A DNA stretch of 64,000 nucleotides from an uncultured Hyphomicrobiales bacterium (GCA_964524325.1 CAZGCT010000001.1:172164-236163), one strand, 5' to 3'. Shown: positions 16,679-61,315, counted from the first letter of the stretch. Translations and numbers: made by a program. Notes: generated by a model from the sequence alone, not told the origin.

Positions 16679-16691
16679 TAACAAAGATAAA

Positions 16692-44211: not shown

Positions 44212-44232
44212 TTTAAGTCATAAATTTGGAGA

Positions 44233-44754: not shown

Positions 44755-44766
44755 TTGGGAGGATTT

Positions 44767-45996
44767 ATGGGACCACTTGTGCCAGATGTAATTAGTCAAG
44801 GGTTAAATTTTGTTATTGCATTTTTTATTGGAATTTTCTTTGGTGCGATATTGGAACAGGCAGGTTTTTCTTCTTCGCGAAAACTTGTTGGTTTGTTCTA
44901 CGGTTATGATTTTACGGTTTTAAGAGTATTCTTTACTGCTGGTGCCGTTGCAATGGCTGGAATTTTTCTTTTCCAAACATTTGGAATCATCGATATTACT
45001 GCCTTTTATATAAATCCAACTTACTTCTGGTCTGCAATAGTTGGTGGTTTAATTATGGGACTGGGATTTGTTGTTGGTGGATATTGCCCAGGAACAAGTG
45101 TTTGTGCTGCTTCCATAGGTAAGCTCGACGCAATGGTTTTCGTTTTTGGCATTATTGTTGGCGTTTTTATTTTTGCCGAAGGGTACAGTATCTTTGAACC
45201 ATTATATAAAAGTTCGTTTCTGGGTTATCCAAGAATTTTCCAAACCTTAAATATTTCTCAGCAGTTTTTTGCTTTTCTTTTGGTTATAATTGCTTTATCT
45301 GCTTTTTATTTTACAAATATTATTGAAAACAAAGTAAATAGTAAAAAGCTAAGTGCCATCAAAACTACACCTTATTTTGCAATAGTGTTAGTGATTGGAG
45401 TTGTTATTGCTTTTTCTTCCTTTACTTTTTACGATAAAAAGGAGATGATATTAAGTTTAACGGAAAATCCAGAATATGTTGTCTCTGCAACTGGTATTTC
45501 TTGCTCCGATACTAATCCAAATCCAAATTCAATTTGCCCTGACGAATTTGCTCTTATCTTAATTAGAATCCTTGAGTTTAAAAACATTAAAATTTATGAT
45601 TTCAGACCCACAGAAGATAGACAAAAACTACCATTTCCAAAATCTATACCCTCAACAATTGATGATTTGTTTTCTAAAGAATTCAATAGACTACTTCGGG
45701 TGAGGGGCACCGAAAATATTTTTATTGCTAATGATGAATTTACAGAAAGAAAGATGGTCTTTATTGCTAAAAGTTTGGGCTACAAAAAAGTTAAGTTTTT
45801 GAAAGGTGGGGTGAACTACTTTGTCGATGAAATTTTGAATTACAAAGAAAACCCCGATCCTAGAACCCAACAAGAAATTAACCGGAACAAATTTAGGCTT
45901 TATGCTAAACAAGTATTACCGGAAATCTTTGCAAAGTCTAAGACAAATGAAGTTTCCCAAACAAAGAAGAAAAAACCTACTATGGGAGGGTGTTAG
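44767..45996 (+). CDS. YeeE/YedE-family transporter half-size subunit B fused to a rhodanese-like domain lacking the active-site Cys
   Basis: The N-terminal TM region carries GGYCPGTSVCAAS. The C-terminus has a rhodanese-like fold (KIYDFRPTEDRQ...FLKGGVNYF) with no Cys at the catalytic loop position. The start is taken at the ATG preceded by GGGAGG. The ORF track begins at an upstream TTG at 44755. Confidence 0.65.
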   Translation: MGPLVPDVISQGLNFVIAFFIGIFFGAILEQAGFSSSRKLVGLFYGYDFTVLRVFFTAGAVAMAGIFLFQTFGIIDITAFYINPTYFWSAIVGGLIMGLGFVVGGYCPGTSVCAASIGKLDAMVFVFGIIVGVFIFAEGYSIFEPLYKSSFLGYPRIFQTLNISQQFFAFLLVIIALSAFYFTNIIENKVNSKKLSAIKTTPYFAIVLVIGVVIAFSSFTFYDKKEMILSLTENPEYVVSATGISCSDTNPNPNSICPDEFALILIRILEFKNIKIYDFRPTEDRQKLPFPKSIPSTIDDLFSKEFNRLLRVRGTENIFIANDEFTERKMVFIAKSLGYKKVKFLKGGVNYFVDEILNYKENPDPRTQQEINRNKFRLYAKQVLPEIFAKSKTNEVSQTKKKKPTMGGC

Positions 45997-46080
45997 TATC
46001 TCTTTTTTGAATTTTTAATTAGGATTAGATTTTGTTTAGTTGCATGGGTTATTTGTTTAGATTAACTTTTTAAAACTAAT

Positions 46081-47376
46081 TTACTTTATCATGTTTCCAT
46101 AATGATCGAACATGTATTTCACAACGGCTTCGGCTTCGTTTGGTTTTAGACCTTGGTTTGGCATAGGCGGGTAATTTGGGTCTACTTTAACAGGGTTTAG
46201 AATGTACCTTACCATATCTTCTTGGCGATCCTCATATTTTTTTAATACTTCTTTGTGAGGAGGGCCAACCAATTTGGTATCGAATTGATGACAAGCAACA
46301 CATTTTGCTTTGTAAATCTCTTCCCCATTAACTTCTTTGACTGTACTGCGACCAGCACTTGCTAAAAGCTTCTCATGATATGCAATATGATCTTTTGAAA
46401 TTTTGAACTCTTGTATTTTGTTCGAAATTGCGAGGGAGGTTGCATCCGAACCAAAGAACAATAGGAAAGAGAATATTGCAGAGAAAAAGGCATTTTTGGC
46501 AAAAGTAATGCTTTTATTTTTTAATGAAAAATAACTAAATAGTAAGCAAAGTAAAAAAACAAGCAAAGAAGCTACAAGTAAAATGTAATTTTGTAGGGTT
46601 ACAAGACTTTTGGGTAAATTGACATAAATGACAAGAGAAATAATTGGAAGAATATTGCCCCAGATGATAACATTTGAAAGAGCTTTTTTAACCACACCGT
46701 TTTCTTCAGGAAAAAATTCGCCTATTTCGGAAACTTTATCCACTGTAAATGTTTTGAAAATGTAGGCTAAGGAGGAAAGGACAAAAGCAATTCCAATGAA
46801 TTGGATAATTCTGAAAATAATATTCAAATCCAAAAAATCTGCAATGTTGAAGCCAGATAAAACGAATGAATTTTGAATTGCAATTAATGAAATACCATTA
46901 GTTAAGTATATAGTAAAAAAGATTGCAATTATTGAAAGTGTTTGAAGTAATAAAATAGTCGGATTAATGTTTATTAAACTATGATTCTTTTCAAAAAAAA
47001 ATAGTATGGTCTTTAGGAAAACTACAAATAAGATGAAAAGTAGAGTGGAAGAAAAAAGTACTACAAAAAAGTCATTGGGTGCCTTTTGCATAAATTGAAG
47101 TAAGGAATAATATATCGAAAGCAAAGGAACAAACCCAAGCCCGATTAACGCTACATAGCCTCTTGCGATATACTCGATAAAGTTCCTTGCAATAGTTAAA
47201 TAGTATTCGTTTTTTGTTTTATTGGTTTTAACATAGAAATATAGGGAATAAATTACACCACCAAACAAAAAAGCAAAATAAAGGTTGAAGGTTGAAAAAC
47301 CTAAATAGAAAAATATCTCCAAAAGTTTTGAAACCTGTACTGAATGTGGAATTGCAAAAACGTTCAACGCTTCCAT
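46081..47376 (-). CDS. polytopic membrane protein with C-terminal class-I cytochrome c domain
   Basis: About 12 TM helices are followed by KAKCVACHQFD ... PPMP, a CxxCH motif plus a Met-ligand region. It is the last gene of the cox/ctaB run. Confidence 0.55.
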   Translation of the reverse strand: MEALNVFAIPHSVQVSKLLEIFFYLGFSTFNLYFAFLFGGVIYSLYFYVKTNKTKNEYYLTIARNFIEYIARGYVALIGLGFVPLLSIYYSLLQFMQKAPNDFFVVLFSSTLLFILFVVFLKTILFFFEKNHSLININPTILLLQTLSIIAIFFTIYLTNGISLIAIQNSFVLSGFNIADFLDLNIIFRIIQFIGIAFVLSSLAYIFKTFTVDKVSEIGEFFPEENGVVKKALSNVIIWGNILPIISLVIYVNLPKSLVTLQNYILLVASLLVFLLCLLFSYFSLKNKSITFAKNAFFSAIFSFLLFFGSDATSLAISNKIQEFKISKDHIAYHEKLLASAGRSTVKEVNGEEIYKAKCVACHQFDTKLVGPPHKEVLKKYEDRQEDMVRYILNPVKVDPNYPPMPNQGLKPNEAEAVVKYMFDHYGNMIK

Positions 47377-47386
47377 TTATTCTCTC

Positions 47387-48256
47387 CTAAAATTTGAGTA
47401 TTTTCTGAACTGAAATGACAAGTGAGAAAATTAAAACAAAGATGTTCAAATTTATAAATGCTATTTTATAAAAGTTTTGTGGTTGGATAACTTTAACCAT
47501 ACGGTAAATTCTTCCTAAAAATAAAACACCTAGCAAAAAAACAACGATAAACGAATAAAGATTAAAACTTTCGATAAAAGCTAATATTATCAATGCAATT
47601 ATCACAAGTGCAAAAATCCAAAAAAAAGATATTCTTGCAATTTGTAAGGAAGAAAAAATATCTGTGAGCACTGGAAAGCCAGCATTTCGATACTCTTTCT
47701 CATAAACAATTAAAAGTAACCAAAAATGTGGAATTTGCCATACAAAAAAGAAAAGGGAAATTGAAAAGATTTGAGGATGCTCAATTGAACCGCCCGCAAA
47801 TGTCCAACCTATCAAAGGAGGAATTGCTCCAATCACAGCTCCAGGGATTGCTGCAAAAGGGGTTATTCTCTTCAAAGGTGTATAAATTACATTATAAAAA
47901 ATTAAGGCAAGAAGCCCAAAAAAGAAAGGGTGTGACTTTTCACTTGAGAGAAAAAGTACAGCTAAGCCTATTGCAATTAGTGCTCCAGATATAATAGTTC
48001 CAGATGCTGGAGAAATTACTCCTTGGGGGATTGGACGAGACATTGTTCTTGGCATTCGACTGTCCAATTGCCATTCTTGCACTTGATTGAGTGCACCGGA
48101 GCCTCCAGCCAGCAAAAAAACACCAAGCCAAAGGAAAAACAAATCGAAATTAATAGAATTGTTTGCAAGTATATAACCAAGAATTGCTGATATCGATACA
48201 AATACGACAATTCGAAATTTAATCAATATTAGAAAATTCTTTAAGGTAAATTTCAT
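47387..48256 (-). CDS. ctaB: protoheme IX farnesyltransferase (heme O synthase)
   Basis: A UbiA-family fold carries the motif NQVQEWQLDSRMPRTMSRPIP. Confidence 0.8.
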   Translation of the reverse strand: MKFTLKNFLILIKFRIVVFVSISAILGYILANNSINFDLFFLWLGVFLLAGGSGALNQVQEWQLDSRMPRTMSRPIPQGVISPASGTIISGALIAIGLAVLFLSSEKSHPFFFGLLALIFYNVIYTPLKRITPFAAIPGAVIGAIPPLIGWTFAGGSIEHPQIFSISLFFFVWQIPHFWLLLIVYEKEYRNAGFPVLTDIFSSLQIARISFFWIFALVIIALIILAFIESFNLYSFIVVFLLGVLFLGRIYRMVKVIQPQNFYKIAFINLNIFVLIFSLVISVQKILKF

Positions 48257-49224
48257 TGTTTATTTTTTGCAAAGTTGATGAACAACAAATCAACAATGTA
48301 CTCTAATTCATCTTCTTTTAAGTTGTTTAGTTGTCTTGGCATTTTAATTTTTTCATAACCACTAACAATATGTAAGTCGGGGTTGATTATTGATTCCCGA
48401 ATGTAGTTCTTGTCTATAGCAACAGAAGTGTCTTTCCCATTGAAGATGACTTTTGCAAAACCCCGAGATAATTCAGAAAACGATGGACCTATGCTTTTTC
48501 TGTTGTCAATACTATGACATTGGACACAACCTTTTGCAAATAAGATTGCCTGGCTACCAGACAAGTAATCTTTATAGCCACCAGTATGAGATGCTACATA
48601 TTTTCGAAGATAATTATCGTCGACTTTACCCTCTAGCCATTGCGAAAATTCATGCTCCGGTACGACATAGACTTTTGTGTACATTAATGAATGATTCAAA
48701 CCGCAATATTCAGCACATGCTATGTCGAATGAACCAATTTCTTTCGGATGTACAACCATATAGTTTTCTCTACCAGGAATAGCGTCCTCTTTAATTCTAA
48801 AAGCAGGTATGTAAAAAGAATGGTTTACGTCTTGCGATACAATGTTGAACTTAACTGGCCTTCCAACCGGTATAAACAAAGTGTCTGTTACTTTGCCATT
48901 ATCGTAAAAAAAATTCCAAGCCCACATTTTTGCTTCGACCTTAACGTTCAGTGCGTTGGGTGGAACAATTCGCGATTCCTTGAAAACTCCATAACTGTAG
49001 AAAAACATTGTTAAGACAAGTATTACAGGAACAACAATCCAAATAATTTCAACAACCTTATTCCCCTCAATTTGCGAGGCGACTGGATTTCTCTTCCGAT
49101 TGTATTTGATTACAAAATATATCATAGCAAAAGTAACAATCAAAAGTAACGCAACTGCTATTCCTATTATATACAACATCACATAATCGACTGATTTAGC
49201 ATATTCTGTTGCCCATTGAAACAT
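48253..49224 (-). CDS. coxB: cytochrome c oxidase subunit II with fused cytochrome c domain (caa3-type)
   Basis: Two N-terminal TM helices are followed by the CuA motif CAEYCGLNHSLM. A C-terminal CVQCH heme site is present. Confidence 0.85.
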   Translation of the reverse strand: MFQWATEYAKSVDYVMLYIIGIAVALLLIVTFAMIYFVIKYNRKRNPVASQIEGNKVVEIIWIVVPVILVLTMFFYSYGVFKESRIVPPNALNVKVEAKMWAWNFFYDNGKVTDTLFIPVGRPVKFNIVSQDVNHSFYIPAFRIKEDAIPGRENYMVVHPKEIGSFDIACAEYCGLNHSLMYTKVYVVPEHEFSQWLEGKVDDNYLRKYVASHTGGYKDYLSGSQAILFAKGCVQCHSIDNRKSIGPSFSELSRGFAKVIFNGKDTSVAIDKNYIRESIINPDLHIVSGYEKIKMPRQLNNLKEDELEYIVDLLFINFAKNKQ

Positions 49225-49233
49225 TTCAACCTC

Positions 49234-49527
49234 CTACCTAAAGAAAATATCAGTTGCCGTAAGAATAAAAATTGATGCAAGCGTTACCAGTGCAACCAAA
49301 AGAAAGAACTTGAAAATTGCATCGTCGAATTTAATATGCATAAAATAGTTTATAACAAGAGTTGACTTGACAGCTGCAATAAATAAAGCTATAAACAAAG
49401 CAATCCGACCAAAATCTACACCAGCAATGGTTACTGTAAGGACAGTAAGTGAAACAAGGCTTAACCAAACAAGTACATAAGTTCCATAGGGTATTAAATG
49501 TGAGTTGTGCTCTTTTTCCATTGTCAC
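49234..49527 (-). CDS. coxD: cytochrome c oxidase small subunit IV (CoxD-like)
   Basis: A 97-aa protein with 3 TM helices, positioned between coxC and coxB. Confidence 0.5.
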   Translation of the reverse strand: MTMEKEHNSHLIPYGTYVLVWLSLVSLTVLTVTIAGVDFGRIALFIALFIAAVKSTLVINYFMHIKFDDAIFKFFLLVALVTLASIFILTATDIFFR

Positions 49528-49530
49528 CTC

Positions 49531-50211
49531 TTAGTGAATAAGATAAAACAAAGGGAACAAAAAAATCCAAATTAGATCGACAAGGTGCCAATATAATCCA
49601 GAGTTTTCGAGTTTGATATAATCCTCTTTGTTGATTTTATTTCTAGATAGGAAAACAAGCATAAATAGTAATATTATTGCACCAATAATTACGTGTAAAG
49701 CGTGGAGCCCAGTCATAGAATAATACATTCCGTAGAAAATAATCTCACCATTTGGCTTTGACAGTAACTCTGGGTTGTTCGGTGAAATTCCATGCTGAAA
49801 CTTTGCGCCCCACTCAAAATACTTAATGACAAGGAAGGCTAAAGCAAAAGCAATAGTCGAAATTAAGAAAAAAATTGAAAGAGTCTTTTTAGCTCTTTGG
49901 ATTGCTGCTATCGAAAGAGCCATAGTTAAACTACTTGTTAAAAGAATAATAGTATTTACCGTACCTAGAACAACATTCAGTTCTTGCCCTGCTATTATAA
50001 AGTCCTTTGTATATTGCAATCGATAAGACATATAAAGCAGAAATAATCCCCCAAATAAAAGCAATTCAGTAAATAAAAACAACCACATACCGATTTTGGC
50101 ACCAATAGCATCTTTGTGTTGATGTGGGTCAGAGATATGGTGGACACTCTTCTTAATTTGATTTTCGGAAAGTGCATTTGTTGTTTCAATTCTTTCCATC
50201 ATTTTTCTCAT
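49531..50211 (-). CDS. coxC: cytochrome c oxidase subunit III
   Basis: A roughly 200-aa, 5-TM protein adjacent to coxA with the subunit III-like hydrophobic pattern. Confidence 0.7.
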   Translation of the reverse strand: MRKMMERIETTNALSENQIKKSVHHISDPHQHKDAIGAKIGMWLFLFTELLLFGGLFLLYMSYRLQYTKDFIIAGQELNVVLGTVNTIILLTSSLTMALSIAAIQRAKKTLSIFFLISTIAFALAFLVIKYFEWGAKFQHGISPNNPELLSKPNGEIIFYGMYYSMTGLHALHVIIGAIILLFMLVFLSRNKINKEDYIKLENSGLYWHLVDLIWIFLFPLFYLIH

Positions 50212-51826
50212 TTATTTTTGAAAAATCGTAAGGTCCGTGATTAACTACTGGTATTGTTTTAAAATTTTCTGTCGGTGGGGGCGAGGGTATGGTCCATTCT
50301 AAAGTAACTCCTCCCCAAGGATTTGAATCGGATCTTTTTCCTTTAAAAAGTGAATAAATTAGATTGCCAAACATCATAGCAAGCCCAGCTATGAGTATCC
50401 ATGAACCAATTGTTGAAATTATGTGCAAGGTTTCGTATTCAGGAAGATAACTCCAATAACGGCGAGGCATTCCTAAGTAACCAAGAATAAACATTGTGAA
50501 ATATAGCATGTTGAAACCAATAAAGATAAATGGGGTAGACCAAATTGCTACTTTTTCATTATACATTTTTCCAAACATTTTTGGGAACCAGTAATGTAGA
50601 GCTGCAAATAAGATAATTGCTGTTCCTCCAAACATTACATAATGGAAATGTGCGACAACGAAGTAGGTGTCCGTTACGTGAATGTCTGTTGCTAATGAAC
50701 CTAAAACAAGTCCGGTTAGACCCCCAATAGAAAAAAGAAAAATGAACATCATTACGTAAATTAAAGGTGCACGCAGTTCTATAGAACCTTTGTAAAGAGT
50801 TGCTACCCAATTGAAAACTTTAACTCCGCTTGGAACAGCAACAAGAAATGTAAGCAAAGAAAATATCATTCTTGCGGTATCGCTGATACCAGAAGTGAAC
50901 ATATGATGAGCCCAAACAAAGTAACCAATTAGGGCAATCGAGAGCGAAGAGAAAGCTATAACCCTATATCCAAAAATAGTTCTACGAGCAAAAGTAGGAA
51001 TAATTTCAGATACGACTCCCATAGCAGGCAATATCATTATGTAAACTGCTGGATGTGAATAAATCCAGAAAAGATGCTGAAACAATAATGGGTCACCACC
51101 GAGTGCGGGGTCGAAAATACCAATTTGTAAAATCCTTTCAACTACAACAAGAAGAATGGTTATTCCTACTACTGGGGTGGCTACTACTTGAATCCAAGCA
51201 GTTGCATACAAAGCCCAGACAAACAAAGGCATCCTGAAAAATGTCATTCCAGGTGCTCGTAGTCGGTGTACCGTAGTAACAAAATTCAATCCAGTAAGAA
51301 TTGATGAGAAACCAAGAATGAAAGCCCCAAGCAATGGAAGAATAACATTTGTAGTTGTTCGAATGCTATACGGAACATAAAATGTCCATCCAGTATCGAT
51401 TGGGCCGCCTTGAAGAAATAAAGATATTATTGCAAAAAGTCCACCTAGGATGTATAGATACCAGGATAAAAGGTTAAGCCTCGGAAATGCAACATCCCGC
51501 GCTCCAATTTGTATTGGGAGGAAAAAGTTGCCAAAAATTGCAGGTATTCCTGGTATTATAAATAGAAAAATCATTATTACCCCGTGGAGGGTGAAAAAAG
51601 CATTGTATGTCTGTGCATCAATAATAGTTTGGTCTGGGGTAAGCATTTCGAGTTTCATCAGAAAGCCTAAAAAAACACCAACCCAGAAAAATGTGATCAT
51701 TGCTACAAGATAAAGTATACCAATTCTTTTGTGGTCTGTGCTCGAAAGCCACCCCAAAATTCCCTTCTTTGTTTCGTGTTGTGAAAGATAATTTTCAAGT
51801 GTTTCTGCAATAGTGCTATTAGCCAT
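50186..51826 (-). CDS. coxA: cytochrome c oxidase subunit I
   Basis: The heme-copper oxidase motifs WAHHMF, GHPEVY-like region and conserved His ligands are present. The protein is 546 aa. Confidence 0.9.
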   Translation of the reverse strand: MANSTIAETLENYLSQHETKKGILGWLSSTDHKRIGILYLVAMITFFWVGVFLGFLMKLEMLTPDQTIIDAQTYNAFFTLHGVIMIFLFIIPGIPAIFGNFFLPIQIGARDVAFPRLNLLSWYLYILGGLFAIISLFLQGGPIDTGWTFYVPYSIRTTTNVILPLLGAFILGFSSILTGLNFVTTVHRLRAPGMTFFRMPLFVWALYATAWIQVVATPVVGITILLVVVERILQIGIFDPALGGDPLLFQHLFWIYSHPAVYIMILPAMGVVSEIIPTFARRTIFGYRVIAFSSLSIALIGYFVWAHHMFTSGISDTARMIFSLLTFLVAVPSGVKVFNWVATLYKGSIELRAPLIYVMMFIFLFSIGGLTGLVLGSLATDIHVTDTYFVVAHFHYVMFGGTAIILFAALHYWFPKMFGKMYNEKVAIWSTPFIFIGFNMLYFTMFILGYLGMPRRYWSYLPEYETLHIISTIGSWILIAGLAMMFGNLIYSLFKGKRSDSNPWGGVTLEWTIPSPPPTENFKTIPVVNHGPYDFSKINEKNDGKN

Positions 51827-52595
51827 TTCTCACCTCTGAATTCTCTTTTTTCTTTTTAGAAATTAATATTACAAAAAATACAGCTAAGCCAAGTAGAATT
51901 AAAGTTCCAAAAACGCGTGTGAAATTGAACACATATGTTCTTCCGGTTGGGTCGTAGGAGTAACAAAATTTTAAAATGCGGTTAACTGTGGGCAATGGTA
52001 TTCCTTTGTCAGCTTCTAATAAAGCCATTTTAAAGTCGAACGGGTTAAACTCCGTTCCGAATAAATATCTTATTATTTTACCATCTGGGGAAATCGAATA
52101 CAATGCTGCACCGTGAATAAATTCTCCTTTGCCATCTGGCTTAAAGTAGAAACCTACAGATTTAGTTACTTTCATAATCGAAATACTATCGCCAACAAGA
52201 AATACCCAGCCATTTTTATCGATTTTCCGCTTAAGGCCTTTTATGTGGTTTTCTTTCCACTTTTTTGCCTTATCGTATGTTTCTGTATGATCAAAACTTA
52301 TAGTAACAAGTTGGTAGTCTTTACCGGGTATTAGATCTGTTTTATCAACTACCTCTGAGATACCAGTTAAAAGTGGACTACAAATTCCAGGGCAGTGATA
52401 ATAAACAAACATTAGTATTGTGGGTTTATTGATCAAGTCCCAAAGTTTAATTTGCTTTCCCTCTTCATTGGTAAATGAAAGATCCAGTGGGATTTTGTTG
52501 CCTAATTTTTCTACAATACCTACTTCGGGTTCTTTAATGCTTTTCAAAACCGAAGCAACAAGAAAAAATGCAAGAATAAGTAATATCCTTTTCAT
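51819..52595 (-). CDS. sco: SCO1/SenC copper chaperone
   Basis: A thioredoxin-like fold with the CPGIC motif and a downstream His is present. Confidence 0.8.
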   Translation of the reverse strand: MKRILLILAFFLVASVLKSIKEPEVGIVEKLGNKIPLDLSFTNEEGKQIKLWDLINKPTILMFVYYHCPGICSPLLTGISEVVDKTDLIPGKDYQLVTISFDHTETYDKAKKWKENHIKGLKRKIDKNGWVFLVGDSISIMKVTKSVGFYFKPDGKGEFIHGAALYSISPDGKIIRYLFGTEFNPFDFKMALLEADKGIPLPTVNRILKFCYSYDPTGRTYVFNFTRVFGTLILLGLAVFFVILISKKKKENSEVRNG

Positions 52596-52606
52596 AACTC
52601 TCTATT

Positions 52607-53512
52607 TCAATTTAGTGTTAGAATTTTATCAATGAATTGTTTTTTCTCTTGTTCACTTGAATAAATAAATTTAGGTGAAATACCATTAAGCGGAAATGTA
52701 GAAATAATTAAATCTTCTATGTTCTTGGAGTCTTTTCTGGCATTTATCAGAAAGTGGGTAAATTTGTCTAAATCCTTAATGAATTTTTTTAAATTTTCAT
52801 CATTGAGAGCCAAAGATATTGAATTTGTTTTTCCAAGAAATTGTTCATTTTCTTTTAAAATTTTGTCTATTGCTTTTGTTATTGGTATTGTTGGGGGAAG
52901 TTCATAAGTTTGTGTTACTTTGTAGGTTGTTTCCAAATCGGCAATATCCTTTTCTGAAATTTCAACAGAATCGGTATAAAACTTATTAATTTTGTGAAAC
53001 AAAGCGATTTTTTCCTTTGTAGAAAGATAGCTATAAGAGACCATGCTTGAACCTATTATTCCTTCTTGCAAGGTCTTATAAACTTGTGTGATTGTTCTTC
53101 CATTTTTCCAACCTTCTTTAGATTTGAAATTCCTTGGAGAGGGATTTAACCCCATACTTGCTAATCCATTTCCTTCCCCAGTTTCGCCGTGGCAGGAAGA
53201 GCAAGTAGTCCGATAAATTTCCTCTCCCCTCTTTATCATATCAATTGGAGGTTTGATTATTTCCTCTACTTTTATACCTTCTATTTTTCTTCCAAGCGAA
53301 AGCTCGACCTCTTTGAATTGTTTGGTTGTATCAATTTCGTCGTGGGGGGTGGTGTTCCTATAAAAATGGTCAATTTGGTCAAGGTAAGCTAAACTTATGC
53401 CAAAAATCGAAAGGAAGATAATTATAAATGAATATCCAACCCACCTTTTAGGGTCCTTAAAAACCTCTTTAAAGTTAATTTCATCATAAAAATAATCAAA
53501 TAATTTTTTCAT
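52607..53512 (-). CDS. membrane-anchored monoheme cytochrome c
   Basis: An N-terminal TM helix and a single CSSCH motif with Met downstream are present. The gene lies between actF and sco. Confidence 0.7.
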   Translation of the reverse strand: MKKLFDYFYDEINFKEVFKDPKRWVGYSFIIIFLSIFGISLAYLDQIDHFYRNTTPHDEIDTTKQFKEVELSLGRKIEGIKVEEIIKPPIDMIKRGEEIYRTTCSSCHGETGEGNGLASMGLNPSPRNFKSKEGWKNGRTITQVYKTLQEGIIGSSMVSYSYLSTKEKIALFHKINKFYTDSVEISEKDIADLETTYKVTQTYELPPTIPITKAIDKILKENEQFLGKTNSISLALNDENLKKFIKDLDKFTHFLINARKDSKNIEDLIISTFPLNGISPKFIYSSEQEKKQFIDKILTLN

Positions 53513-53588
53513 TTTATGCTGCCCAAATTTTAATTTAGTTTCTTCTAATAAAGCAAATACGATATTTTTAAAAAATATTGTTAAGATT

Positions 53589-54782
53589 TTATAAATGAAA
53601 CTCTACACCTCTTTTGAGTTTTGGGTCGCCTATAGGTACGAGGTTTATCTTTTTTGCAAAGAGGTAAAAAGATGTTAGCAACAAACCAAACCCAAAAATT
53701 ATCGTAACTACTTCAAACCAATTGAAGGGTATTGATTGCTTTGAGTAAGTTGGCATAACAATCCAGAACAAGTCGTAGTAATGAGAAAAAAGTATCCAAA
53801 TAGAGGCGATTTTAAGCCTTCTTGCATCCATTTTTGCTGGTTGGGGTAACAAAAATATATAGGGTACCACAAACTTAACGAAAATAATACCGATGGAGAC
53901 ATACAGCCAGGAACCAGTGCCCCGATCTATAAACCAAAAAGTTTCTTCTGGCAAATTAGCATACCAAATCAACATAAATTGACTGAAAGCAATGTATGCC
54001 CAGAAATTGGTGAACGCGAAAAGAAGAGCTCCCATGCTATAATAATGGTCTGGACCTAATCCTTGTACTAAGTACCCCTTTTCGTTCAACATTATTGAAA
54101 ACAATGTAAAAACACTTAAAGAAGCAAGAAAAGTTCCAGCAAAATAATATACACCAAAAATAGTTGAATACCAATGAGGTTCCAGGCTCATTAGAAAGTC
54201 TATGGCGAATATTGTTAAGGTTACAGCGAAGATTGGCATAAATATAGCGGAGACAGTTATATTTTTCTTAGTGAAATTTTGACTTGGATTTACATCCTGA
54301 CTCCGAGAAAACCTGGTTATTAAGTAATAGAATAAATACCATAAAAGTAAAATTATGATAGTTCTAATAATAAAGAAATTTTCGTTTAAGTAAGGTGCTT
54401 TTCCTTTTAATATTTTGTCGGCTTGAACAGCTTCGTAATGCGACCAATGAAAAAGGGAATGAATATTAAGAATTATTGGAATAATCAAAACTGGCAAAAA
54501 CAAAATAACCGATGCATTGATTTCTGCTACTCTCCTAAATGGTACACTCCACACTGCTCCAGTAAGATATTCAATACCAATAAAGAATAATGAACCTACA
54601 CCAATGCTTGCTATCCACGCGGTTAGAATAACTAAATTGAAAGAAATTCTAGCTGGATTGAATATAAAACCGAGAATTATTCCCAACAATCCAATAGCAA
54701 ACAGCAAAAAGCCAAGCTTGAAGATTTTTTGGGGAATTTCTTTTTTCTCGTAAATAACATCAATTTTGGCATTTTCTATCAT
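53589..54782 (-). CDS. actF: alternative complex III subunit ActF (NrfD/PsrC-like membrane subunit)
   Basis: The protein has about 10 TM helices in a polysulfide-reductase-like membrane fold. The start is set at the ATG overlapping the actDE stop (ATGA). The ORF track extends to 54935. Confidence 0.7.
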   Translation of the reverse strand: MIENAKIDVIYEKKEIPQKIFKLGFLLFAIGLLGIILGFIFNPARISFNLVILTAWIASIGVGSLFFIGIEYLTGAVWSVPFRRVAEINASVILFLPVLIIPIILNIHSLFHWSHYEAVQADKILKGKAPYLNENFFIIRTIIILLLWYLFYYLITRFSRSQDVNPSQNFTKKNITVSAIFMPIFAVTLTIFAIDFLMSLEPHWYSTIFGVYYFAGTFLASLSVFTLFSIMLNEKGYLVQGLGPDHYYSMGALLFAFTNFWAYIAFSQFMLIWYANLPEETFWFIDRGTGSWLYVSIGIIFVKFVVPYIFLLPQPAKMDARRLKIASIWILFSHYYDLFWIVMPTYSKQSIPFNWFEVVTIIFGFGLLLTSFYLFAKKINLVPIGDPKLKRGVEFHL

Positions 54783-55918
54783 TGAGTATCCTCCTGTTTT
54801 GCATTTAAAGATCGCTGCAAGGCTCTTATGTAGAGAACGATAGCCCAACGTTCTTCCTCGGTTAGTTGTTTGGAATAGGATGGCATAATATTTTGCCCTT
54901 CCACAATCACATGATATATACGACCGTCGCTCCAATTTCGAACTTTATCGGTATGGATGCTTGGGGGATTCGGGAATTGCCCATTTAAACGACTATCTCC
55001 TTCCCCGCGCCACCCATGGCAGGGGCTGCAGAAAGTGTTATATTTATCTTTGCCAAGTTTTAAATTAGCTTCTGTGTACATTAATGGATTAATTAATTTT
55101 GCACCAGCTTCATCAGGTTTGCCTTTGAAAGGATAGAAAATGTCTCCACGGCTAACGGTTCCTGCAACTGGTTTTCGCATTCCAAAACCATCGGCAAAGA
55201 AATTAGAGCTTTCTTGAGGGTTCAATTTAAATTGGTTCAACATAAAGTCGAATGGTGGCAAATACAGAATTTTATTGTTGAATAAATAACCAATAGTCGA
55301 AGTTAGAGAAGCAATGAAAACAAGAAAGACAATGAATTTCCAACTGAAAACTTTAGGTTTGAAACTTAGTTCGTTTTCTTGATATTCAATATCTAATATT
55401 TCGTCCGCCTCAAATTCTTTAAATAGCCTATGAACTTCTTCGTAGCTAAATTTCGGGTCTTTTTCTTCGATAATTAAGCCACAATAGTCGGTTGAGATTA
55501 GCTGCATGTAACGTGTGTCGTTTAAAGGATGTCGATTGTTTGGAAATTTAAAGATGATGAAAAGCATTACAATCGCTGTTCCTACGGACGCAAGCAAAAC
55601 TGTAACTTCAAAAATTACTGGTACAAAAGCTGGGAAGGAGAACCAAGGTTTCCCACCAATGATAAGTGGATAGTCCACCGACATGGTCCACCATGTCAGA
55701 AGAATTGCAGAAAAGGTACCAGTGAGCCCTAAAATCAATGCAACATAACCTAAAGGGGACCATTTTAAACGCATTATTTTGGGAATACCATGGAGGGGAT
55801 AGGAGGAATGAACATCCCATTTTTTGTAACCCAACTCCACAACTTTTTTTGCAAGTTTTACTAACTTGTTAGGGTCTTTGTAAAGAGCACCAATGGCAAA
55901 AAGTTTCTTTTCTTCCAT
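54779..55918 (-). CDS. actDE: alternative complex III ActD-ActE fusion (membrane DUF3341-like domain + monoheme cytochrome c)
   Basis: An N-terminal ActD-like segment of about 170 aa with TM helices is followed by a C-terminal CSPCH monoheme domain. Confidence 0.6.
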   Translation of the reverse strand: MEEKKLFAIGALYKDPNKLVKLAKKVVELGYKKWDVHSSYPLHGIPKIMRLKWSPLGYVALILGLTGTFSAILLTWWTMSVDYPLIIGGKPWFSFPAFVPVIFEVTVLLASVGTAIVMLFIIFKFPNNRHPLNDTRYMQLISTDYCGLIIEEKDPKFSYEEVHRLFKEFEADEILDIEYQENELSFKPKVFSWKFIVFLVFIASLTSTIGYLFNNKILYLPPFDFMLNQFKLNPQESSNFFADGFGMRKPVAGTVSRGDIFYPFKGKPDEAGAKLINPLMYTEANLKLGKDKYNTFCSPCHGWRGEGDSRLNGQFPNPPSIHTDKVRNWSDGRIYHVIVEGQNIMPSYSKQLTEEERWAIVLYIRALQRSLNAKQEDTQ

Positions 55919-55925
55919 TTTGACC

Positions 55926-57287
55926 TCAATGATGTTTGGGTTGTGAATTTGGAAGCACGGCTTTTACTTCCGAAATGGATACTACTGGTAATGTGCGGAT
56001 AAATAAGATTACTAATGTAAAAAATAACCCGAAGCTACCGATTAGTATTCCTAAATCATATAAAGTTGGTTTGAAATAGTCCCAACTTGTGGGAAGAAAG
56101 TCTCGGGAAGTTGTTGTAACAACAATCACAAAACGTTCGAACCACATCCCTACATTTACCAAAACACCAATTATGAACATTGGAATGATACTTCTTCTTA
56201 TTTTTTTAATCCAGAAAAGTTGAGTGAATATCACATTGCAAGAAACCATTATCCAATAAGCCCAAGCATAATTGCCAAACGCTCTATTAATAAAGACAAA
56301 AGATTCAAGAGGATTACCACTATACCATGCGATAAAGAATTCCATCCCGTAGGCATACCCAACCATTAAACCAGTTGCAATCATAACTTTGTTCATTTTT
56401 TCGAGTGTGTCTATAGTAATAATGTGCTCCAAATCGAAGATTTTGCGAATTACAATCAAAACATTTTGAACCATTGCAAAGCCAGAAAAAACTGCTCCAG
56501 CTACAAAATAAGGTGGGAAAATTGTTGTGTGCCAACCGGGTAGGATCGAAACTGCAAAGTCGAAACTAACTATTGTATGTACCGAAAGCACTAAAGGAGT
56601 TGCAAAGCCAGCAAGGACAAGATACATCATTTCGTAATGATTCCAATGTTTATTGGAGTGTCTCCATCCAAGGCTAAAAATGGAGTAAATTATTTTCTTG
56701 ATTTTGTTTTTTGTTCTGTCCCTTAACATTGCAAGGTCGGGAATTAATCCAATATACCAAAATACGAATGATACAGTAAGATAAGTCGAGACTGCGAAAA
56801 CGTCCCAAATTAATGGAGAAGTAAAGTTAACCCAAAGATGGTGTTGGTTGGGCAGGGGGAAAAGATACCCATCGAGCCAAGGGCGACCTGTGTGGATTAA
56901 CGGAAAAAGCCCAGCAGTCATAACCGCAAATATTGTCATTGCTTCTGCGAATCGAGCGATACCCGTTCGCCACCTTTGTCGAAAGAGGAACAAAATAGCT
57001 GAAATCAATGTTCCTGCATGTCCTATTCCTACCCAAAAAACAAAGTTTACAATGTCGAAAGCCCAACCAATTGGTTGATTAATTCCCCAAAGGCCTAACC
57101 CATAGTAAAAAGTAAAACCAAGACATATAGCACCAACTAAAAGCATCGACACCGAAATACCAAGTGCCAGATAGTATTTCCATGTTGGTTTAGTTTCAAG
57201 AGGCCGTGCAATCGAATCGTATATTTGTGCTTGAGTTGGGGTGCCCTCGACAACTGTAGGTTCAATTGAATAGTCGATTTGATTCAC
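55926..57287 (-). CDS. actC: alternative complex III subunit ActC (NrfD/PsrC-like quinol-binding membrane subunit)
   Basis: A 10-TM polysulfide-reductase-like protein lying directly downstream of actB. Confidence 0.75.
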
Positions 57288-60200
57288 GCTTTATCCTCCT
57301 TTGTTTTATTTCGCAATTTGGCAATATAGGTTACGTTTGGCTTAACATTTAACTCTTCGAGTACATAATAACCGAGCTTATGATTACGCCATTTATAGAT
57401 ATCTGAATCTTTATCGTTGACATTTCCAAAGATAATAGCTTCTGCTGGACAAGCTTCTTGGCAAGCAGTTTTAACTTCGCTTCCTTTGAATTCGCGCCCT
57501 TCGGTTTGGGCTTTGTGTCTTGCGTCAGTAATTCTTTGAATGCAAAAAGTGCATTTTTCCATTACCCCGCGGGAGCGAACAGTAACTTCCGGATTATTTA
57601 GCAATTTGAGAGAATCTTGGTAAAAATAACCATTAGCAAAATGATTTCTAAAATCAAAGAAGTTGAATCTTCGGACTTTATAAGGGCAGTTGTTAGAACA
57701 ATACCTGGTACCAACACAGCGGTTGTAAATCATTTGATTTAATCCATCTGGACTATGGTTTGTGGCAACAACTGGACAAACATTCTCGCACGGTGCGTCG
57801 TCGCAATGTTGGCATAACATTGGTTGCAAACTTACCTCTGGATTATCTGGTGTTCCACTGAAATAGGTATCGATTCGTATCCATTGCATTTCGCGTCCTC
57901 GAATTACTTGATCCTTACCAACAACTGGAACATTGTTTTCCACATTGCAGGCGCTTATGCATGCTCCACAACCAGTACACTTGTTTAAATCTATTGCCAT
58001 TGCCCATTTAACGCCATGATATTGTATTTCAGGTATAATCGTGAGTTTTTGCTTTGCCTTGTGGATTTCAAACCTATCGTTTATGAAATCTTCGACCGTG
58101 CTCTCCTGAATAATATGACGAGATTTATGTAAATCTTTCACAAAAGTATCATTTAATGAATGATGTTCAACAGTGCTGGCAAATTTGTAATATCGATTTA
58201 GTTTAGTGACTTTTATATCTGATAATACCAATCCATTTTTGTAATCCTCTTTTGAAAGTAGTTGTAAGGGGTCGAAGCCAACATCTTTACCGATGGGGCC
58301 TGCATTTGTTCGCCCAAAACCTGCTTCGATAGTTAAAGTTTTTTCAGCTAACCCAGGAAGTACGAAAATAGGTGCTTCTAATGAATTGTTCTTATGTTCA
58401 ATTTTTACGAAATCACCAGTTTTTAGGTTCAGCTTATTTGCTTCGTTTTCTGAAATGGCAATGTAATTGTCCCAAGTAACTTTAGAAATTGGATGTGGTA
58501 ATTCAACCAACCAAGCATTATTCAAAAATTTTCCATCCCAAACAAAATAAGGCTTTTTAATTAGGATTGTCCATTTGCTTTCATTTTTTTTGAAATTTAA
58601 TTCTTTTAATTTTGAAAAGTCAGCATTGGGTTTAATAAATTCTTTCGATGGGAAGGAGAAAACACCGTCGTGTAGCACAGAAAACCAAAATTGTTCAAAG
58701 GGTACACCTACCTTGGTTTTTGGAAAAACTTCTGTTTCCCAAAACTTTTTTAAGTATTCGTGAAAATTATTGTTCCTCAACTTTCCATCAACGAGAGCCA
58801 GCATTATGCTTTCCTTTTGATAGGTTCCGTAGATGGGTTCTATAACCGGTTGAGAGAGTGAATAAATTGATTCTCCATCAAAGAAATCTCCCCAGCTTTC
58901 AAAATTGTGATTTATTGGGACTATATGATTGGAAAGCAGTGCAGTTTCGGTTTCACTTTCAACAAAAGCAAAAACATTTGGGACTTTTTCCATTCCTTTT
59001 GCCAGTTCGAAATCTCTTGGTAAATGGAAGACTGGGTTGCAATCCAAAATAATCAGGGTTCCTACTTTTCCAGATAATAATGAACTGGACAAGGAAGCCA
59101 GATCTTCAAATGTAGATTTTGGGATTGAAGGTTTCGGTTTATTTCTAAATAAATTGTGATTGCTTAAAATTTCGTTTAGCAAGTTGCATAGGTAATGAAT
59201 TGTATAAGGTTGAAGATCTCCAGCAAAAACAATTGAATTGCTTTGGCTACTGATTAAATCTTTTACAATCTGTTTAAGCAAATCGATTGAAATATTATTG
59301 GAATTTGCGAACTGCTCTAAATTGAAATTTGAAAATTTTTCGCGTAAGAGTGACATTGGAATACTTAAATTTGAAAGCTTTTCTGCATGCTTGGTTATGA
59401 TTTCATTAATTATGGAGGCAATCAAGTATTCATATTGACTTGGATGTAGTGGGATCCTGTAATCAGCGTTAGCACCCGTTAATGTAAAATCCGACTCTAC
59501 AGCATAGAATCTGCTAAAATTATGTATATCATTTACGTTCCTTTTTGATGCAAATTCTCTTATGTTTCGAACAATGTTGCCCTCGTTGCCAAGAAAATTG
59601 CTTTCTATGGAAACAATAACTTTTGCTTTGGTTAGGTCATAATCCAAGAGATTTGTATTCGGGTAAAAGTCAATCAAAGCTTTTTCTTTTGAATAGTTTT
59701 CCAGAAACTCGTAAGTGAAGATTTTAGTATTTGGGTATTTTTCTTTGAATTGCGATAATATCTTGGCAAAAGAGGGGGAGTAAATATGCTTCGAAATAAT
59801 TGCAATTTCTTTTCTTTCATTAACGCTATTGTTTAATACAGTCAACAATGTAGAAAAAATATTTGGAAAATCGGTTTTTTCCCACTTGCCATTTCTTTTT
59901 ATTAATGGTGTTTTGTATCTCTCCGGATCGTAAAGATTAAGAATTGTAGCTTGCCCAATGGAGCAAATTTTACCTTTATTGACAGGATGGTCTGGGTTTC
60001 CATCGACTTTAATAGGTCTTCCTTCACGTGTTTTGATTAGAATTCCACAATGATTCGGGCAACCCATGCAAGTCGAAGAATAATAATTTGCTTTGCCAGG
60101 AAGAACATTTTCTGGTTTTTGATTGTACGGAACAATATCGCCTTTATTACGATAATCTTTACAAGCAGTTGAAGTGAAAGCGAGGGTTGCTGCTGAAATT

Positions 60201-60346
60201 GCAAGAAATTTTCGTCTCGAAATACCATTCAGGTGGTTAACGTTAAATTCTTCTTTAACATCATATTGAAATTCTGTTTCTTTTAGTGTTTGAGACTTTT
60301 CAGGATTTTTTAATTCATCAAAACTCTTCCAATATTTTTTTATCAT
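57284..60346 (-). CDS. actB: alternative complex III subunit ActB (molybdopterin-oxidoreductase-like domain fused to 4Fe-4S ferredoxin domain)
   Basis: The Tat signal [13 protein letters not shown] is present. Fe-S motifs include [25 protein letters not shown] and CSNNCPY. The start is set at [12 protein letters not shown]. Confidence 0.85.
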
Positions 60347-60507
60347 GGTAAACCTATTTTTTATCAACAAATGTTTTATACAAATGCACACAAAAAGCGG
60401 ATTCTCTTTCCAGAGTTCTTCTTTAGTGAAACTAAGGGGAAATGCATTCCTAGTTTGGTGGTTTCAAAAATAATTGGCGAAAAGGTTAAATTCTTCATAT
60501 TCAGATT

Positions 60508-61080
60508 TTACCTATGACAAGCTCCGCAAAAATCTGGACCATTATTAATTTTATCTTTCAGCTCAGGCATTTTTTGGTGTGCATTTCTATGGCAATCCAA
60601 GCATGCACCCATTGTGAGTCTATGTACTTGTTGAATCTTGTCCATCTTTGCTACGTCACCGTGACAATGCTTACAATCAATTCCTTTTTGAACGTGGACG
60701 GCATGATTAAAGTAGGCAAAGTCTCCAAGTCTGTGAACACGATTCCATTTAATTGGTCGTTCGTCAGCAAAAAATTGTGCAAGTTTGATTATTTCGGGTT
60801 TGTCTTTTCTTGCAACAGAATGGCAATTCATACAAATATCTGTAGATGGGATTGTTGCAAATCTTCCTTTATCAACGCCGATATGGCAGTATTTACAATC
60901 AATTTGCATATTCCCGGCGTGAAGTTTGTGGGAAAAAGTAATAGGTTGGTTTGGTGAATACCCAACTCCATCACGCTCTGGTCTCGATACAAAAAAAGTT
61001 ACAAAATATGCCACAAGAACAACAAAAACTGTAATTGGCAGGCGAACTTTTAAAATGTAATCAAGCTGAGACTTTTGCAC
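60508..61080 (-). CDS. actA: alternative complex III subunit ActA (pentaheme cytochrome c)
   Basis: An N-terminal TM helix is followed by five CxxCH motifs. Confidence 0.8.
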   Translation of the reverse strand: MQKSQLDYILKVRLPITVFVVLVAYFVTFFVSRPERDGVGYSPNQPITFSHKLHAGNMQIDCKYCHIGVDKGRFATIPSTDICMNCHSVARKDKPEIIKLAQFFADERPIKWNRVHRLGDFAYFNHAVHVQKGIDCKHCHGDVAKMDKIQQVHRLTMGACLDCHRNAHQKMPELKDKINNGPDFCGACHR

Positions 61081-61277
61081 AATTTACTCCATATTAATAA
61101 AGAAAAAAACAATATAAATAAACAAAAATATGAAAAAAAAAATTTTTTTAAAAAAATTATAAATCAACAGGTATCCAATTGCACAACAAAGGGTTAAAAA
61201 ATGAAAATGATACTAGTATAAACTAAAATTTATTTTAGTTGTTTTTACTTTTGTTTAAAGTTCAATTTAAAATATAA

Positions 61278-61315
61278 ATATCCCTCTATTTGATAGTTCG
61301 AGAACTGGAGGGTAT
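61278..61315 (-). terminator. hairpin ATATCCCTC ... GAGGGTAT with T-rich tail downstream of the lipoprotein gene and upstream of the actA promoter region
   Basis: An inverted repeat of 8-9 bp with a loop of about 22 nt. The minus-strand tail reads TTATATTTTAAATTG. Confidence 0.35.

Follow-up and report, generated by a model that had tools for sequence, protein, structure and literature searches.

An ActD-ActE fusion protein encoded in a conserved 13-gene cluster for alternative complex III and an A2-type haem-copper oxidase

Organization of the gene cluster

The analysed window is a 64-kb stretch of DNA, in which 13 consecutive ORFs, all on the minus strand, occupy positions 46081-61080 (Table 1). 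Domains were assigned with Pfam and NCBIfam, and motifs were counted by script. Every subunit matched its own family and solved chains of alternative complex III (ACIII) or of oxidases, and the diagnostic motifs were all found. The genes, domains and motifs given in a preliminary description of this DNA were confirmed, as was its order of the cox genes (I-III-IV-II followed by ctaB).

Most junctions in the cluster are overlapping or tight. Wider gaps were observed between actA and actB (~160 bp) and between actF and the gene for the 301-aa cytochrome (76 bp). As described previously, the stop codon of actDE and the start codon of actF share the sequence ATGA, and AGGAGG is located upstream of this overlap. 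The start of actF is most likely at 54782 rather than at the TTG at 54935. On an identical contig, actB was called independently as a gene for 1020 aa, so that its true start is most likely M16, at about 60346. Promoter and terminator scans of the cluster gave nothing exceeding chance. Judging from the spacing, the 13 genes would be carried on one transcript.

Table 1. Features of the ACIII-oxidase cluster, in window coordinates
Feature	Position	Strand	Assignment	Family or motif
p431 (431-aa protein)	46081..47376	(-)	polytopic membrane domain with C-terminal monohaem cytochrome c	
ctaB	47387..48256	(-)	haem O synthase (protohaem IX farnesyltransferase)	UbiA/CtaB, PF01040 (6.8e-43)
coxB	48253..49224	(-)	subunit II, type IIc	PF02790 (COX2_TM), PF00116 (COX2), TIGR02866
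coxD	49234..49527	(-)	prokaryotic oxidase subunit IV	PF03626 (COX4_pro; 9e-11)
coxC	49531..50211	(-)	oxidase subunit III	PF00510 (COX3; 3.9e-19)
coxA	50186..51826	(-)	haem-copper oxidase subunit I, A2 subtype	PF00115 (COX1; 1.5e-147)
sco	51819..52595	(-)	SCO1/SenC copper chaperone, CuA assembly	PF02630; CPGIC
301-aa cytochrome c	52607..53512	(-)	membrane-anchored monohaem cytochrome, lineage-specific helical C-terminal domain	
actF	53589..54782	(-)	second NrfD-like membrane subunit	
actDE	54779..55918	(-)	one 379-aa ORF, ActD fused to ActE	
fusion junction	55277..55348	(-)	third TM helix, aa ~191-214	FIVFLVFIASLTSTIGYLF
actC	55926..57287	(-)	NrfD-like quinol-binding membrane subunit	PF03916 (NrfD; 1.8e-22)
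actB	57284..60391	(-)	molybdopterin-like B1 domain and 4Fe-4S B2 domain, Tat signal	
actA	60508..61080	(-)	pentahaem cytochrome c subunit of ACIII, N-terminal membrane helix	

Subunits ActA, ActB, ActC and ActF

The script detected five CXXCH motifs and a hydrophobic N-terminal segment in ActA, in agreement with the pentahaem subunit and N-terminal transmembrane (TM) helix of ACIII. The protein belongs to the multihaem c7/c3 group in Pfam (Cytochrome_C7/CIII) and matched the solved ActA chains 8k9e_A (4.8e-41) and 6f0k_A (3.9e-39). ActB contains the Pfam families Molybdop_Fe4S4, Molydop_binding and Fer4 (Fer4_7/11), and its QrcB-like and QrcC-like halves are joined within a single protein. With the NCBIfam TAT-variant signal TIGR04519 and RRKFL at aa 59, ActB is predicted to be a Tat-exported fusion of B1 and a B2 domain with four FeS clusters, as in ACIII.

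The identity of ActC across related loci is 74-87%. ActF gave no Pfam match. It was matched by 6f0k_F (2.3e-78) and also by 8k9e_F, 6lod_F and 6btm_F, and more weakly by ActC chains. ActC and ActF are the two homologous NrfD-like subunits of ACIII.

Structure of the ActD-ActE fusion

The first ~190 residues of ActDE form ActD, with two TM helices and a cytoplasmic domain. They are followed by the third TM helix and by an ActE monohaem cytochrome c (aa ~223-379, CSPCH at 297). Pfam assigned PF11821 (ActD) to aa 10-174 (E 2.8e-51) and PF13442 (cytochrome c) to aa 285-364. The N-half matched Rhodothermus marinus 6f0k_D (1.6e-26, aa 5-174) and the C-half matched 6f0k_E (8.3e-28, aa 228-377); both halves also matched D and E chains of Roseiflexus, Chloroflexus and Flavobacterium johnsoniae, where these are separate. 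Residues 223-377 align with the four solved ActE chains, and CSPCH and the conserved Met of MPSY are present. ActE, the His/Met monohaem cytochrome that in ACIII caps the haem wire of ActA, is present here as a domain fused to ActD and not as a separate lipoprotein. In TM2, residue E104 does not vary. It is aligned with the FELT motif of R. marinus, which holds the conserved ActD Glu122; ActD of ACIII has such a Glu in TM2.

Three hydrophobic segments were found in ActDE by script, and the junction contains a hydrophobic 19-mer (aa 191-209). In an alignment of 19 sequences, K194, F195, L199, Y211, P222, F223, M226 and Q229 of the linker are invariant, and indels are only small and near the N-terminus. 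The length of ~379 aa is kept across the 120 best protein clusters (377-392 aa). The preliminary description had suggested checking whether ActD and ActE are separate in relatives; full-length matches (query ~1-379) were obtained in 80 of the 80 best-matching species loci. The fusion of an ActD-like membrane domain with a CSPCH cytochrome is genuine, as described previously.

Oxidase subunits

CoxA has WIYSHPAVY in helix VI (aa 254), without the A1-type Glu. In the established classification of haem-copper oxidases, YSHPxV replacing this Glu is the A2 motif. The best PDB match of CoxA was Thermus thermophilus caa3 (2yev_A, 4.8e-131). CoxB (323 aa) is composed of two TM helices, a CuA cupredoxin domain with the motif H...CAEYCGLNHSLM and a fused C-terminal haem-c domain (aa ~229-313), with one CXXCH (CVQCH at aa 233). 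[quoted passage not shown] A subunit II with CuA and a fused class I cytochrome c is characteristic of caa3. The fused haem c on CoxB was found in only 7 of 59 related loci, and this rarity is modestly new.

CtaB matched TIGR01473 with 6.5e-53, under the curated cut-off. In a caa3 enzyme, the low-spin and high-spin haems are a and a3, whose synthesis needs CtaA/Cox15. No match to COX15/CtaA haem A synthase was detected among the scanned ORFs (most ORFs of at least 150 aa in the window).

The 431-aa polytopic cytochrome

The product of the last gene, p431, has ~8 TM helices (aa 1 to ~340), followed by a periplasmic c551/c552-type cytochrome c (aa ~350-431) with CVACH at aa 359. The best 150 matches in a profile search all have the N-domain of p431 and are mostly 420-490 aa long. 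The membrane domain is predicted to have a fold like that of cytochrome bd subunit I/II, with CydB as the top Foldseek match. This agrees with the fold of the bd superfamily, i.e. two four-helix bundles, and with OR-C, i.e. ~8 TM helices and haem c. The bd subunit-like fold in a domain without a Pfam family is modestly new.

The membrane domain gave no Pfam bd-oxidase match (PF01654/PF02322) even at E up to 10, and the sole sequence signal to the bd family was 5doq_A (E 0.11). Residues conserved at 90% or more are only P10, L18, G39, G81, P84 and Q94. Conserved His, Met or Glu were not found in this domain, and the haem-ligand set of CydA (His19, Glu99 and others, in helices 1-4) is absent. 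By sequence, p431 could not be grouped with CydA, CydB or OR-C. It lacks conserved haem ligands and conserved residues of the proton channel, and it is encoded by a lone gene, with no partner subunit, at the end of an ACIII-cox operon.

Conservation of the cluster

The identical order of the 13 genes was found in 42 of 80 related species-level loci, and most of the remaining loci are cut by contig ends. With such recurrence, the arrangement is very unlikely to be due to chance. It is very probably a real operon for aerobic respiration, typical of its lineage, from an uncultured bacterium of the Ignavibacteria/Kapabacteria group. Both the layout and the ActD-ActE fusion are standard among Ignavibacteria, Melioribacteraceae and Kapabacteria. 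The fusion is not new, as it was published in 2012 for Ignavibacterium album and in 2013 for Melioribacter roseus. Since both the fusion and the gene order had been published and are usual in Ignavibacteria and their relatives, the finding is ordinary. The unusualness implied in the preliminary description does not hold; its author had noted that the claims would be trivial if the same organization were common in the phylum, and this is the case.

Alternative explanations

ActD and ActE are separate in the solved ACIIIs of four other organisms, and the window is probably metagenomic, since a contig built from the reads of sequencing run SRR7473445 encodes an identical protein. The fusion might then be an artefact of assembly or sequencing, in which a stop was lost or a frameshift occurred between two genes. 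This explanation has practically no probability and was rejected: the fused architecture recurs in all 80 species loci and in the 120 best protein clusters, which are independent and of many origins, the coding sequence of the junction is conserved, with its invariant residues and a TM helix demanded by topology, and the fused protein was found by proteomics in M. roseus. A second question is which protein corresponds to ActE. The 301-aa protein, a cytochrome c in Pfam, is encoded straight after actF, its M. roseus counterpart Mros0040 was named actE in the genome paper (PMC3534657), and a homologue with 61% identity carries the name 'Alternative complex III subunit ActE' in one NCBI Kapaibacterium record. 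If this protein were the true ActE, the C-terminal cytochrome of ActD would be an unrelated add-on. However, the C-half of ActDE aligns over ~150 residues with ActE of R. marinus, Roseiflexus (2e-19), F. johnsoniae (1.5e-15) and Chloroflexus (2.7e-13), whereas the 301-aa protein aligns with ActE only at 4.8e-4 to 9e-5, over ~40-55 residues around the haem motif, and is better matched by a Kuenenia dihaem protein and CcoP. We consider this assignment very unlikely. By sequence comparison, the 301-aa cytochrome is an extra carrier and not the ActE orthologue.

The haem type of the oxidase leaves more room. A haem-o/b A2 enzyme, c(o/b)o3, like that of Desulfovibrio vulgaris, is possible, though short of probable. 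The cluster contains the haem O synthase CtaB without a haem A synthase, and the gene order agrees with that of Desulfovibrionales. The orthologous M. roseus oxidase was classed as A2 cc(o/b)o3 on the basis of the 66% identity of its CoxI to that of D. vulgaris (Gavrilov, PMC5492636). On the other hand, ctaA could be located elsewhere in the genome, the authors of the I. album study name the homologue caa3, and the closest matches of CoxA and of the CoxB haem-c domain are caa3 enzymes. CoxB here has a single CXXCH, whereas two haem c sites are present in subunit II of D. vulgaris. Thus, the caa3 type given in the preliminary description is partly established: the A2-type CoxA and the haem c of CoxB agree with it, no haem A synthase gene was detected among the ORFs scanned in the window, and the haems may be of type a or of type o/b. 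As for p431, its bd-like fold and haem c might point to a catalytically active, OR-C-like member of the bd superfamily, i.e. an additional cytochrome-c-dependent O2 reductase. This is highly improbable, as the haem ligands and any Pfam bd-oxidase match are missing, the cluster has no partner second subunit, and the domain evolves fast, as haem-less CydB does.

Proposed electron route and role of the fusion

By homology to solved ACIII structures, menaquinol would be oxidized at ActC. Electrons would then leave the FeS1 cluster of ActB, move along the five haems of ActA and reach that of ActE, and from there they would pass to CuA and the binuclear centre, either directly via the CoxB haem-c domain or via tethered cytochromes. 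The reduction of O2 would be coupled to proton translocation. Four monohaem domains are present, among which electrons could route.

In R. marinus, the C-terminus of ActD is cytoplasmic and ActE is a lipoprotein (Sousa 2018, PMC5928083). Since ActD terminates in the cytoplasm, a third TM helix is needed to bring the chain out. This helix would return the chain from the cytoplasmic end of ActD and display ActE in the periplasm, standing in for the lipobox anchor of free ActE, and the fusion would set the ActD:ActE stoichiometry at 1:1. ActE is the ordinary terminal haem of ACIII (PMC5928083), and the fusion adds no redox centre over canonical ACIII. The fusion does not provide an extra electron wire; it exchanges the lipid anchor of ActE for a TM helix.

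Supercomplexes of ACIII and an oxidase have been shown for R. marinus and F. johnsoniae, and by analogy one is plausible here. The related features here, read from the genes, are the gene clustering and the tethered cytochromes. In the R. marinus supercomplex, ActE is proposed to give electrons directly to subunit IIc of caa3 (PMC5928083). In F. johnsoniae, electron flow to aa3 persisted after deletion of actE (PMC8552683); thus, ActE need not be the obligatory exit.

Comparison with known systems

The M. roseus cluster Mros0045-0033, with the fusion Mros0042 (Kadnikov 2013, PMC3534657), maps one-to-one onto the window, and the order is identical position by position: actA, actB, actC, actDE, actF, monohaem cytochrome c, sco, coxI, coxIII, coxIV, coxII, ctaB and c551/c552 cytochrome. 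ActC, fused ActDE, CoxI, CoxII and MROS_0033 were detected only in aerobic cells, in which ActB and Sco were upregulated (Gavrilov 2017, PMC5492636). The proteins of two MAG loci labelled M. roseus (L003 and L006) are ~30-75% identical to those of the window; in L003, the haem-c domain of CoxB is absent and the ORF runs into ctaB. The last gene product is called a soluble cytochrome in the M. roseus papers, but members of its family carry ~340 aa of polytopic N-domain.

In I. album, the ACIII and 'caa3' cluster IALB_1386-1397 contains the fusion IALB_1390 (Liu 2012, PMC3362086). As in the window, ActD is fused to ActE and ACIII is clustered with the oxidase, and two loci labelled I. album (L025 and L031) have the same 13-gene order. 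The I. album-type CoxB differs, being ~220 aa long without CXXCH.

The ACIII-caa3 supercomplex of R. marinus (Sousa 2018, PMC5928083; PDB 6F0K, 1W2L) provides the closest solved homologues of ActD, ActE, ActF and the CoxB cytochrome c domain. It shares with the window an A2-type oxidase with subunit IIc and the placement of the oxidase genes after those for ACIII, and a direct electron path from ActE to IIc was proposed for it (PMC5928083). In contrast to the window, ActD is not joined to ActE, which has a lipid anchor. R. marinus also has ActG and ActH, its cluster lacks counterparts of the 301-aa and 431-aa cytochromes, and its oxidase genes are ordered differently.

In the ACIII-aa3 supercomplex of F. 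johnsoniae, a member of the FCB group (PDB 6BTM; Lorencik 2021, PMC8552683), ACIII is coupled physically and functionally to an A-type oxidase, and tethered extra cytochrome c domains link them. Unlike in the window, it is ActA that bears the extra cytochrome c domain, and ActD is not fused to ActE. This ActA domain functionally replaces the cytochrome c domain of IIc-type subunit II (Sousa, PMC5928083).

The cc(o/b)o3 oxidase operon of D. vulgaris (Lamrabet 2011 and Ramel 2013, as cited in PMC5492636) is described in the M. roseus papers as having its cox genes in the same order and a CoxI of A2 type. It differs from the window in that no ACIII is attached and that it serves to detoxify O2 in a strict anaerobe.

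Gene content of the operon

Inspection of the open reading frames showed 13 minus-strand ORFs in a row at 46081-61080, as the preliminary description had stated. Gene identities were determined by Pfam and NCBIfam scans and motif details by script; both agreed with the identities proposed earlier. The junctions in the operon overlap or are tight, except those between actA and actB (~160 bp) and between actF and the next gene (76 bp). The previously noted ATGA, in which the stop of actDE overlaps the start of actF, was seen in the sequence, with AGGAGG upstream of it. Thus, the actF start was set at 54782. Since an independent gene call on an identical contig is 1020 aa long, the actB start is probably the 16th codon. 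In a sigma-70 promoter and terminator scan of 45900-61600, the counts did not exceed the shuffled expectation, and Rfam and tRNA scans of the entire window found no candidates.

Features of the operon and of neighbouring gene groups (window coordinates)
Feature	Position	Strand	Characteristics
ActA		-	multihaem; five CXXCH
ActB		-	Tat-exported (RRKFL); molybdopterin-like part and 4Fe-4S parts
ActC		-	NrfD-type
ActDE, 379 aa	54779-55918	-	PF11821 ActD, aa 10-174 (E 2.8e-51); class I cytochrome c domain, aa 285-364; CSPCH at residue 297; three hydrophobic segments
ORF at actF position	53589-54782	-	without Pfam match
301-aa protein	52607-53512	-	cytochrome c
Sco		-	SCO1/SenC; CPGIC
CoxA		-	COX1; helix VI motif WIYSHPAVY
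CoxC		-	COX3
CoxD		-	COX4_pro
CoxB	48253-49224	-	COX2_TM and COX2; CuA motif; CVQCH
CtaB		-	UbiA/CtaB
p431, 431 aa	46081-47376	-	sole Pfam match is C-terminal cytochrome c
Genes convergent with operon end	41943-45996	+	downstream of operon
533-aa multihaem cytochrome	within 41943-45996	+	PF11783 Cytochrome_cB and c3/c7 motifs
Cytochrome b561-type membrane protein	within 41943-45996	+	
Two Sulf_transp proteins	within 41943-45996	+	YeeE/YedE-like sulfur transport
ATP sulfurylase (sat)	18118-19305	-	
105-aa DsrC/TusE-like ORF	16692-17009	-	C-terminal end CKVAGLTKPTGCV; by eye only
316-aa polytopic protein	15648-16598	-	without Pfam match
DsrK/HdrD-like protein	14030-15643	-	Fer4_8 and CCG

Upstream of actA, the minus strand encodes an unknown protein, a SpoU methylase and a BrkB-like protein, none of them related to respiration. 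The plus-strand genes downstream may form a separate quinone-linked periplasmic redox module. Elsewhere in the window, the minus-strand gene group at 14030-19305 resembles sulfur metabolism.

The ActD-ActE fusion

The actDE sequence was compared with solved structures. Residues 5-174 resembled ActD of Rhodothermus marinus (6f0k_D, 1.6e-26), Roseiflexus, Chloroflexus and Flavobacterium, and residues 223-377 resembled ActE, which is a separate chain in each of these four complexes (R. marinus 6f0k_E, 8.3e-28). The motif script detected a third hydrophobic helix in the linker, at residues 191-209. When 19 homologues (54-81% identity) were aligned, indels were small and occurred only near the N-terminus. 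K194, F195, L199, Y211, P222, F223, M226 and Q229 of the linker were invariant in this alignment, as was E104, the glutamate of ActD TM2.

A protein search with actDE gave 1849 relatives. The best 120 clusters all measured 377-392 aa and shared both Pfam domains; they came from Ignavibacteria, Melioribacteraceae, Kapaibacteriota, Stygiobacter and Rosettibacter; the nearest labelled relatives belonged to an Ignavibacteria bacterium (81%) and to Kapaibacteriota (75%). When one genome of each species was scanned, at least 591 stretches encoding a relative were detected. In the best 80 of these, which were compared with the window as L001-L080, the match covered both halves, beginning within the first 17 query residues and ending at residue 373 or later. 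Thus, ActD and ActE are fused in all of these 80 stretches. A lost stop codon or a frameshift at the fusion junction was ruled out by the lengths of the relatives, the alignment and the species loci. On these sequence comparisons, the fusion claimed in the preliminary description is genuine, and annotation should place the true ActE in the C-terminal half of the 379-aa product.

In the R. marinus structure, ActD has both termini in the cytoplasm, and the lipoprotein ActE is tethered on the periplasmic side through its lipobox cysteine (PMC5928083). Since ActD ends in the cytoplasm and ActE is periplasmic, the fusion requires one more membrane crossing. By analogy with this structure, the extra helix of actDE may replace the lipid anchor of ActE.

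Gene order and precedent

The 13 window proteins were searched by tblastn against the 80 best loci. The order actA-B-C-DE-F-cytochrome-sco-coxA-C-D-B-ctaB-p431 was identical in 42 loci; the majority of the others were cut by contig ends, and five had the last two genes swapped. In four loci (L014, L069, L078 and L045), the oxidase region that lies beyond the alternative complex III (ACIII) genes and the 301-aa cytochrome gene is of another kind or rearranged: either coxA has no match in the nearest 10 kb, or divergent coxC/coxD-like genes are all that is present. Thus, the linkage of ACIII and oxidase is not universal.

In Melioribacter roseus, Mros0045-0033 corresponds gene by gene to the window operon, Mros0042 being the fusion, and the I-III-IV-II order was noted to occur in Desulfovibrionales as well (PMC3534657). 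Proteomics found ActC, "fused ActDE", CoxI, CoxII and MROS_0033 in aerobically grown cells only, in which ActB and Sco were upregulated (PMC5492636). The analysis confirms that O2 respiration via ACIII and an A2-type oxidase is encoded in this uncultured Ignavibacteria/Kapabacteria-like organism, as in cultured relatives. The unusual organisation implied earlier did not hold, given the 42 identical loci, the fusion in the best 120 clusters and the published precedent. By the preliminary description's own standard, an organisation that is common in the phylum would make its respiratory-chain claims trivial, and this organisation is common. Overall, the earlier observation is confirmed and its interpretation supported in part; the operon is of a known kind that typifies the lineage, and as a discovery it is of small importance.

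The 301-aa cytochrome

The M. roseus counterpart of the 301-aa cytochrome was named ActE (PMC3534657), and one NCBI record labels a homologue likewise. The resemblance to ActE was confined to the surroundings of the haem motif (4.8e-4), and a Kuenenia dihaem protein and CcoP matched better. Thus, we rejected this assignment, and ActE is unsuitable as a name for the protein. A single anchor helix at the N-terminus precedes its cytochrome c domain, and the C-terminal domain is helical; structural comparison of the latter gave no informative match. We read the protein as an extra tethered carrier.

Type of the oxidase

The CoxA helix VI motif marks the A2 subtype, by its established Tyr-Ser signature. 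CoxA matched the Thermus caa3 enzyme best, and CoxB residues 229-313 matched the cytochrome c domain of R. marinus caa3 subunit II (1w2l_A, 8.7e-12). The cluster contains ctaB and lacks ctaA; no haem A synthase (COX15) was found among the scanned ORFs, that is, most ORFs of at least 150 aa in the 64-kb window. The orthologous M. roseus oxidase was classed as cc(o/b)o3 (PMC5492636). Thus, the caa3 type proposed earlier is secured only in part: haem c on subunit II and the A2-type subunit I speak for it, whereas the absence of ctaA from the cluster and the class of the orthologue speak against it.

CoxB was compared with 59 related loci from L001-L080 that have a complete CoxB ORF. Seven (L001, L002, L006, L008, L018, L022 and L030) contain CXXCH in a fused haem-c domain, as in the window. 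The other 52, the Ignavibacterium album type included, lack CXXCH; nearly all have CuA, and most are ~200-225 aa. The subunit II of the window is therefore a minority variant in the clade, across which the haem-c domain is patchily distributed. This patchiness is a small lead on the wiring of ACIII to the oxidase in these bacteria. In two M. roseus-labelled MAGs, L003 (~16640-18172) and L015, the CoxB frame runs into ctaB without a stop (ORFs of 523 and 503 aa), which may be due to a fusion of the two genes or to an error of assembly.

The last gene product

The C-terminal domain of p431 is a well conserved cytochrome of the c551/c552 type. The first ~340 residues are poorly conserved, with at least 90% conservation only at P10, L18, G39, G81, P84 and Q94, and gave no consistent Pfam family at E up to 10 with 17 family members. 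The AlphaFold model, built with 27 homologues, was confident (pLDDT 87.8), and CydB and CydA chains were within the first nine Foldseek matches. On this model, p431 can be read as approximately eight transmembrane helices with a periplasmic haem c. This arrangement is reminiscent of the OR-C family of the cytochrome bd superfamily (bioRxiv 10.1101/2021.01.16.426971). Since no haem ligand is conserved, p431 was not placed in OR-C; it resembles a CydB-like scaffold devoid of haem with a cytochrome c anchored to it.

When the family profile was compared with PDB sequences, significant matches were limited to the cytochrome c part, and CydA reached E 0.11. A profile of the N-domain alone gave 526 matches at E up to 1e-3 among 1.84 billion representatives. 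The best 150 share the N-domain, are mostly 420-490 aa with some shorter, and provided no link to annotated bd oxidases. Judged by these searches, the family is small and restricted to the lineage.

MROS_0033, the positional counterpart, was published as a "soluble cytochrome c551/c552" (PMC3534657, PMC5492636). Since M. roseus-labelled loci contain full-length p431 matches, the label "soluble" seems to be wrong, and the product should be annotated as membrane-embedded. It is the sole part of the operon with some novelty, and its bd-subunit-like fold is a further small lead on the ACIII-to-oxidase wiring. A bolder reading, which we consider rather unlikely, is that the haem-less CydB-like domain of this integral membrane protein derives from a bd-subunit fold and docks between ACIII and the oxidase, as a built-in subunit, both structural and electron-carrying, of an Ignavibacteria-specific supercomplex; with the anchored 301-aa cytochrome, the chain would then need no free carrier at all. 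If true, this would be an undescribed re-use of the bd-oxidase scaffold.

Probable electron path and comparison with known complexes

By homology to solved complexes, menaquinol would be oxidized at ActC, and electrons would pass from the ActB FeS1 cluster to the haem of ActE by way of the ActA haem wire, and then to the oxidase. Fused ActDE and the extra monohaem cytochrome had been proposed to form a direct electron wire from ACIII to caa3. Since canonical ACIII gains no redox centre by the fusion, the latter is not an extra wire in itself; the additional redox centres are the 301-aa and 431-aa cytochromes. In F. johnsoniae, electron flow to aa3 remains intact after deletion of ActE (PMC8552683), and the exact route is therefore worded with caution here. 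Within the R. marinus supercomplex, the haem-c domain of subunit II receives electrons directly from ActE (PMC5928083). The CoxB of the window carries a haem-c domain of this kind, and by analogy an ACIII-oxidase supercomplex is plausible.
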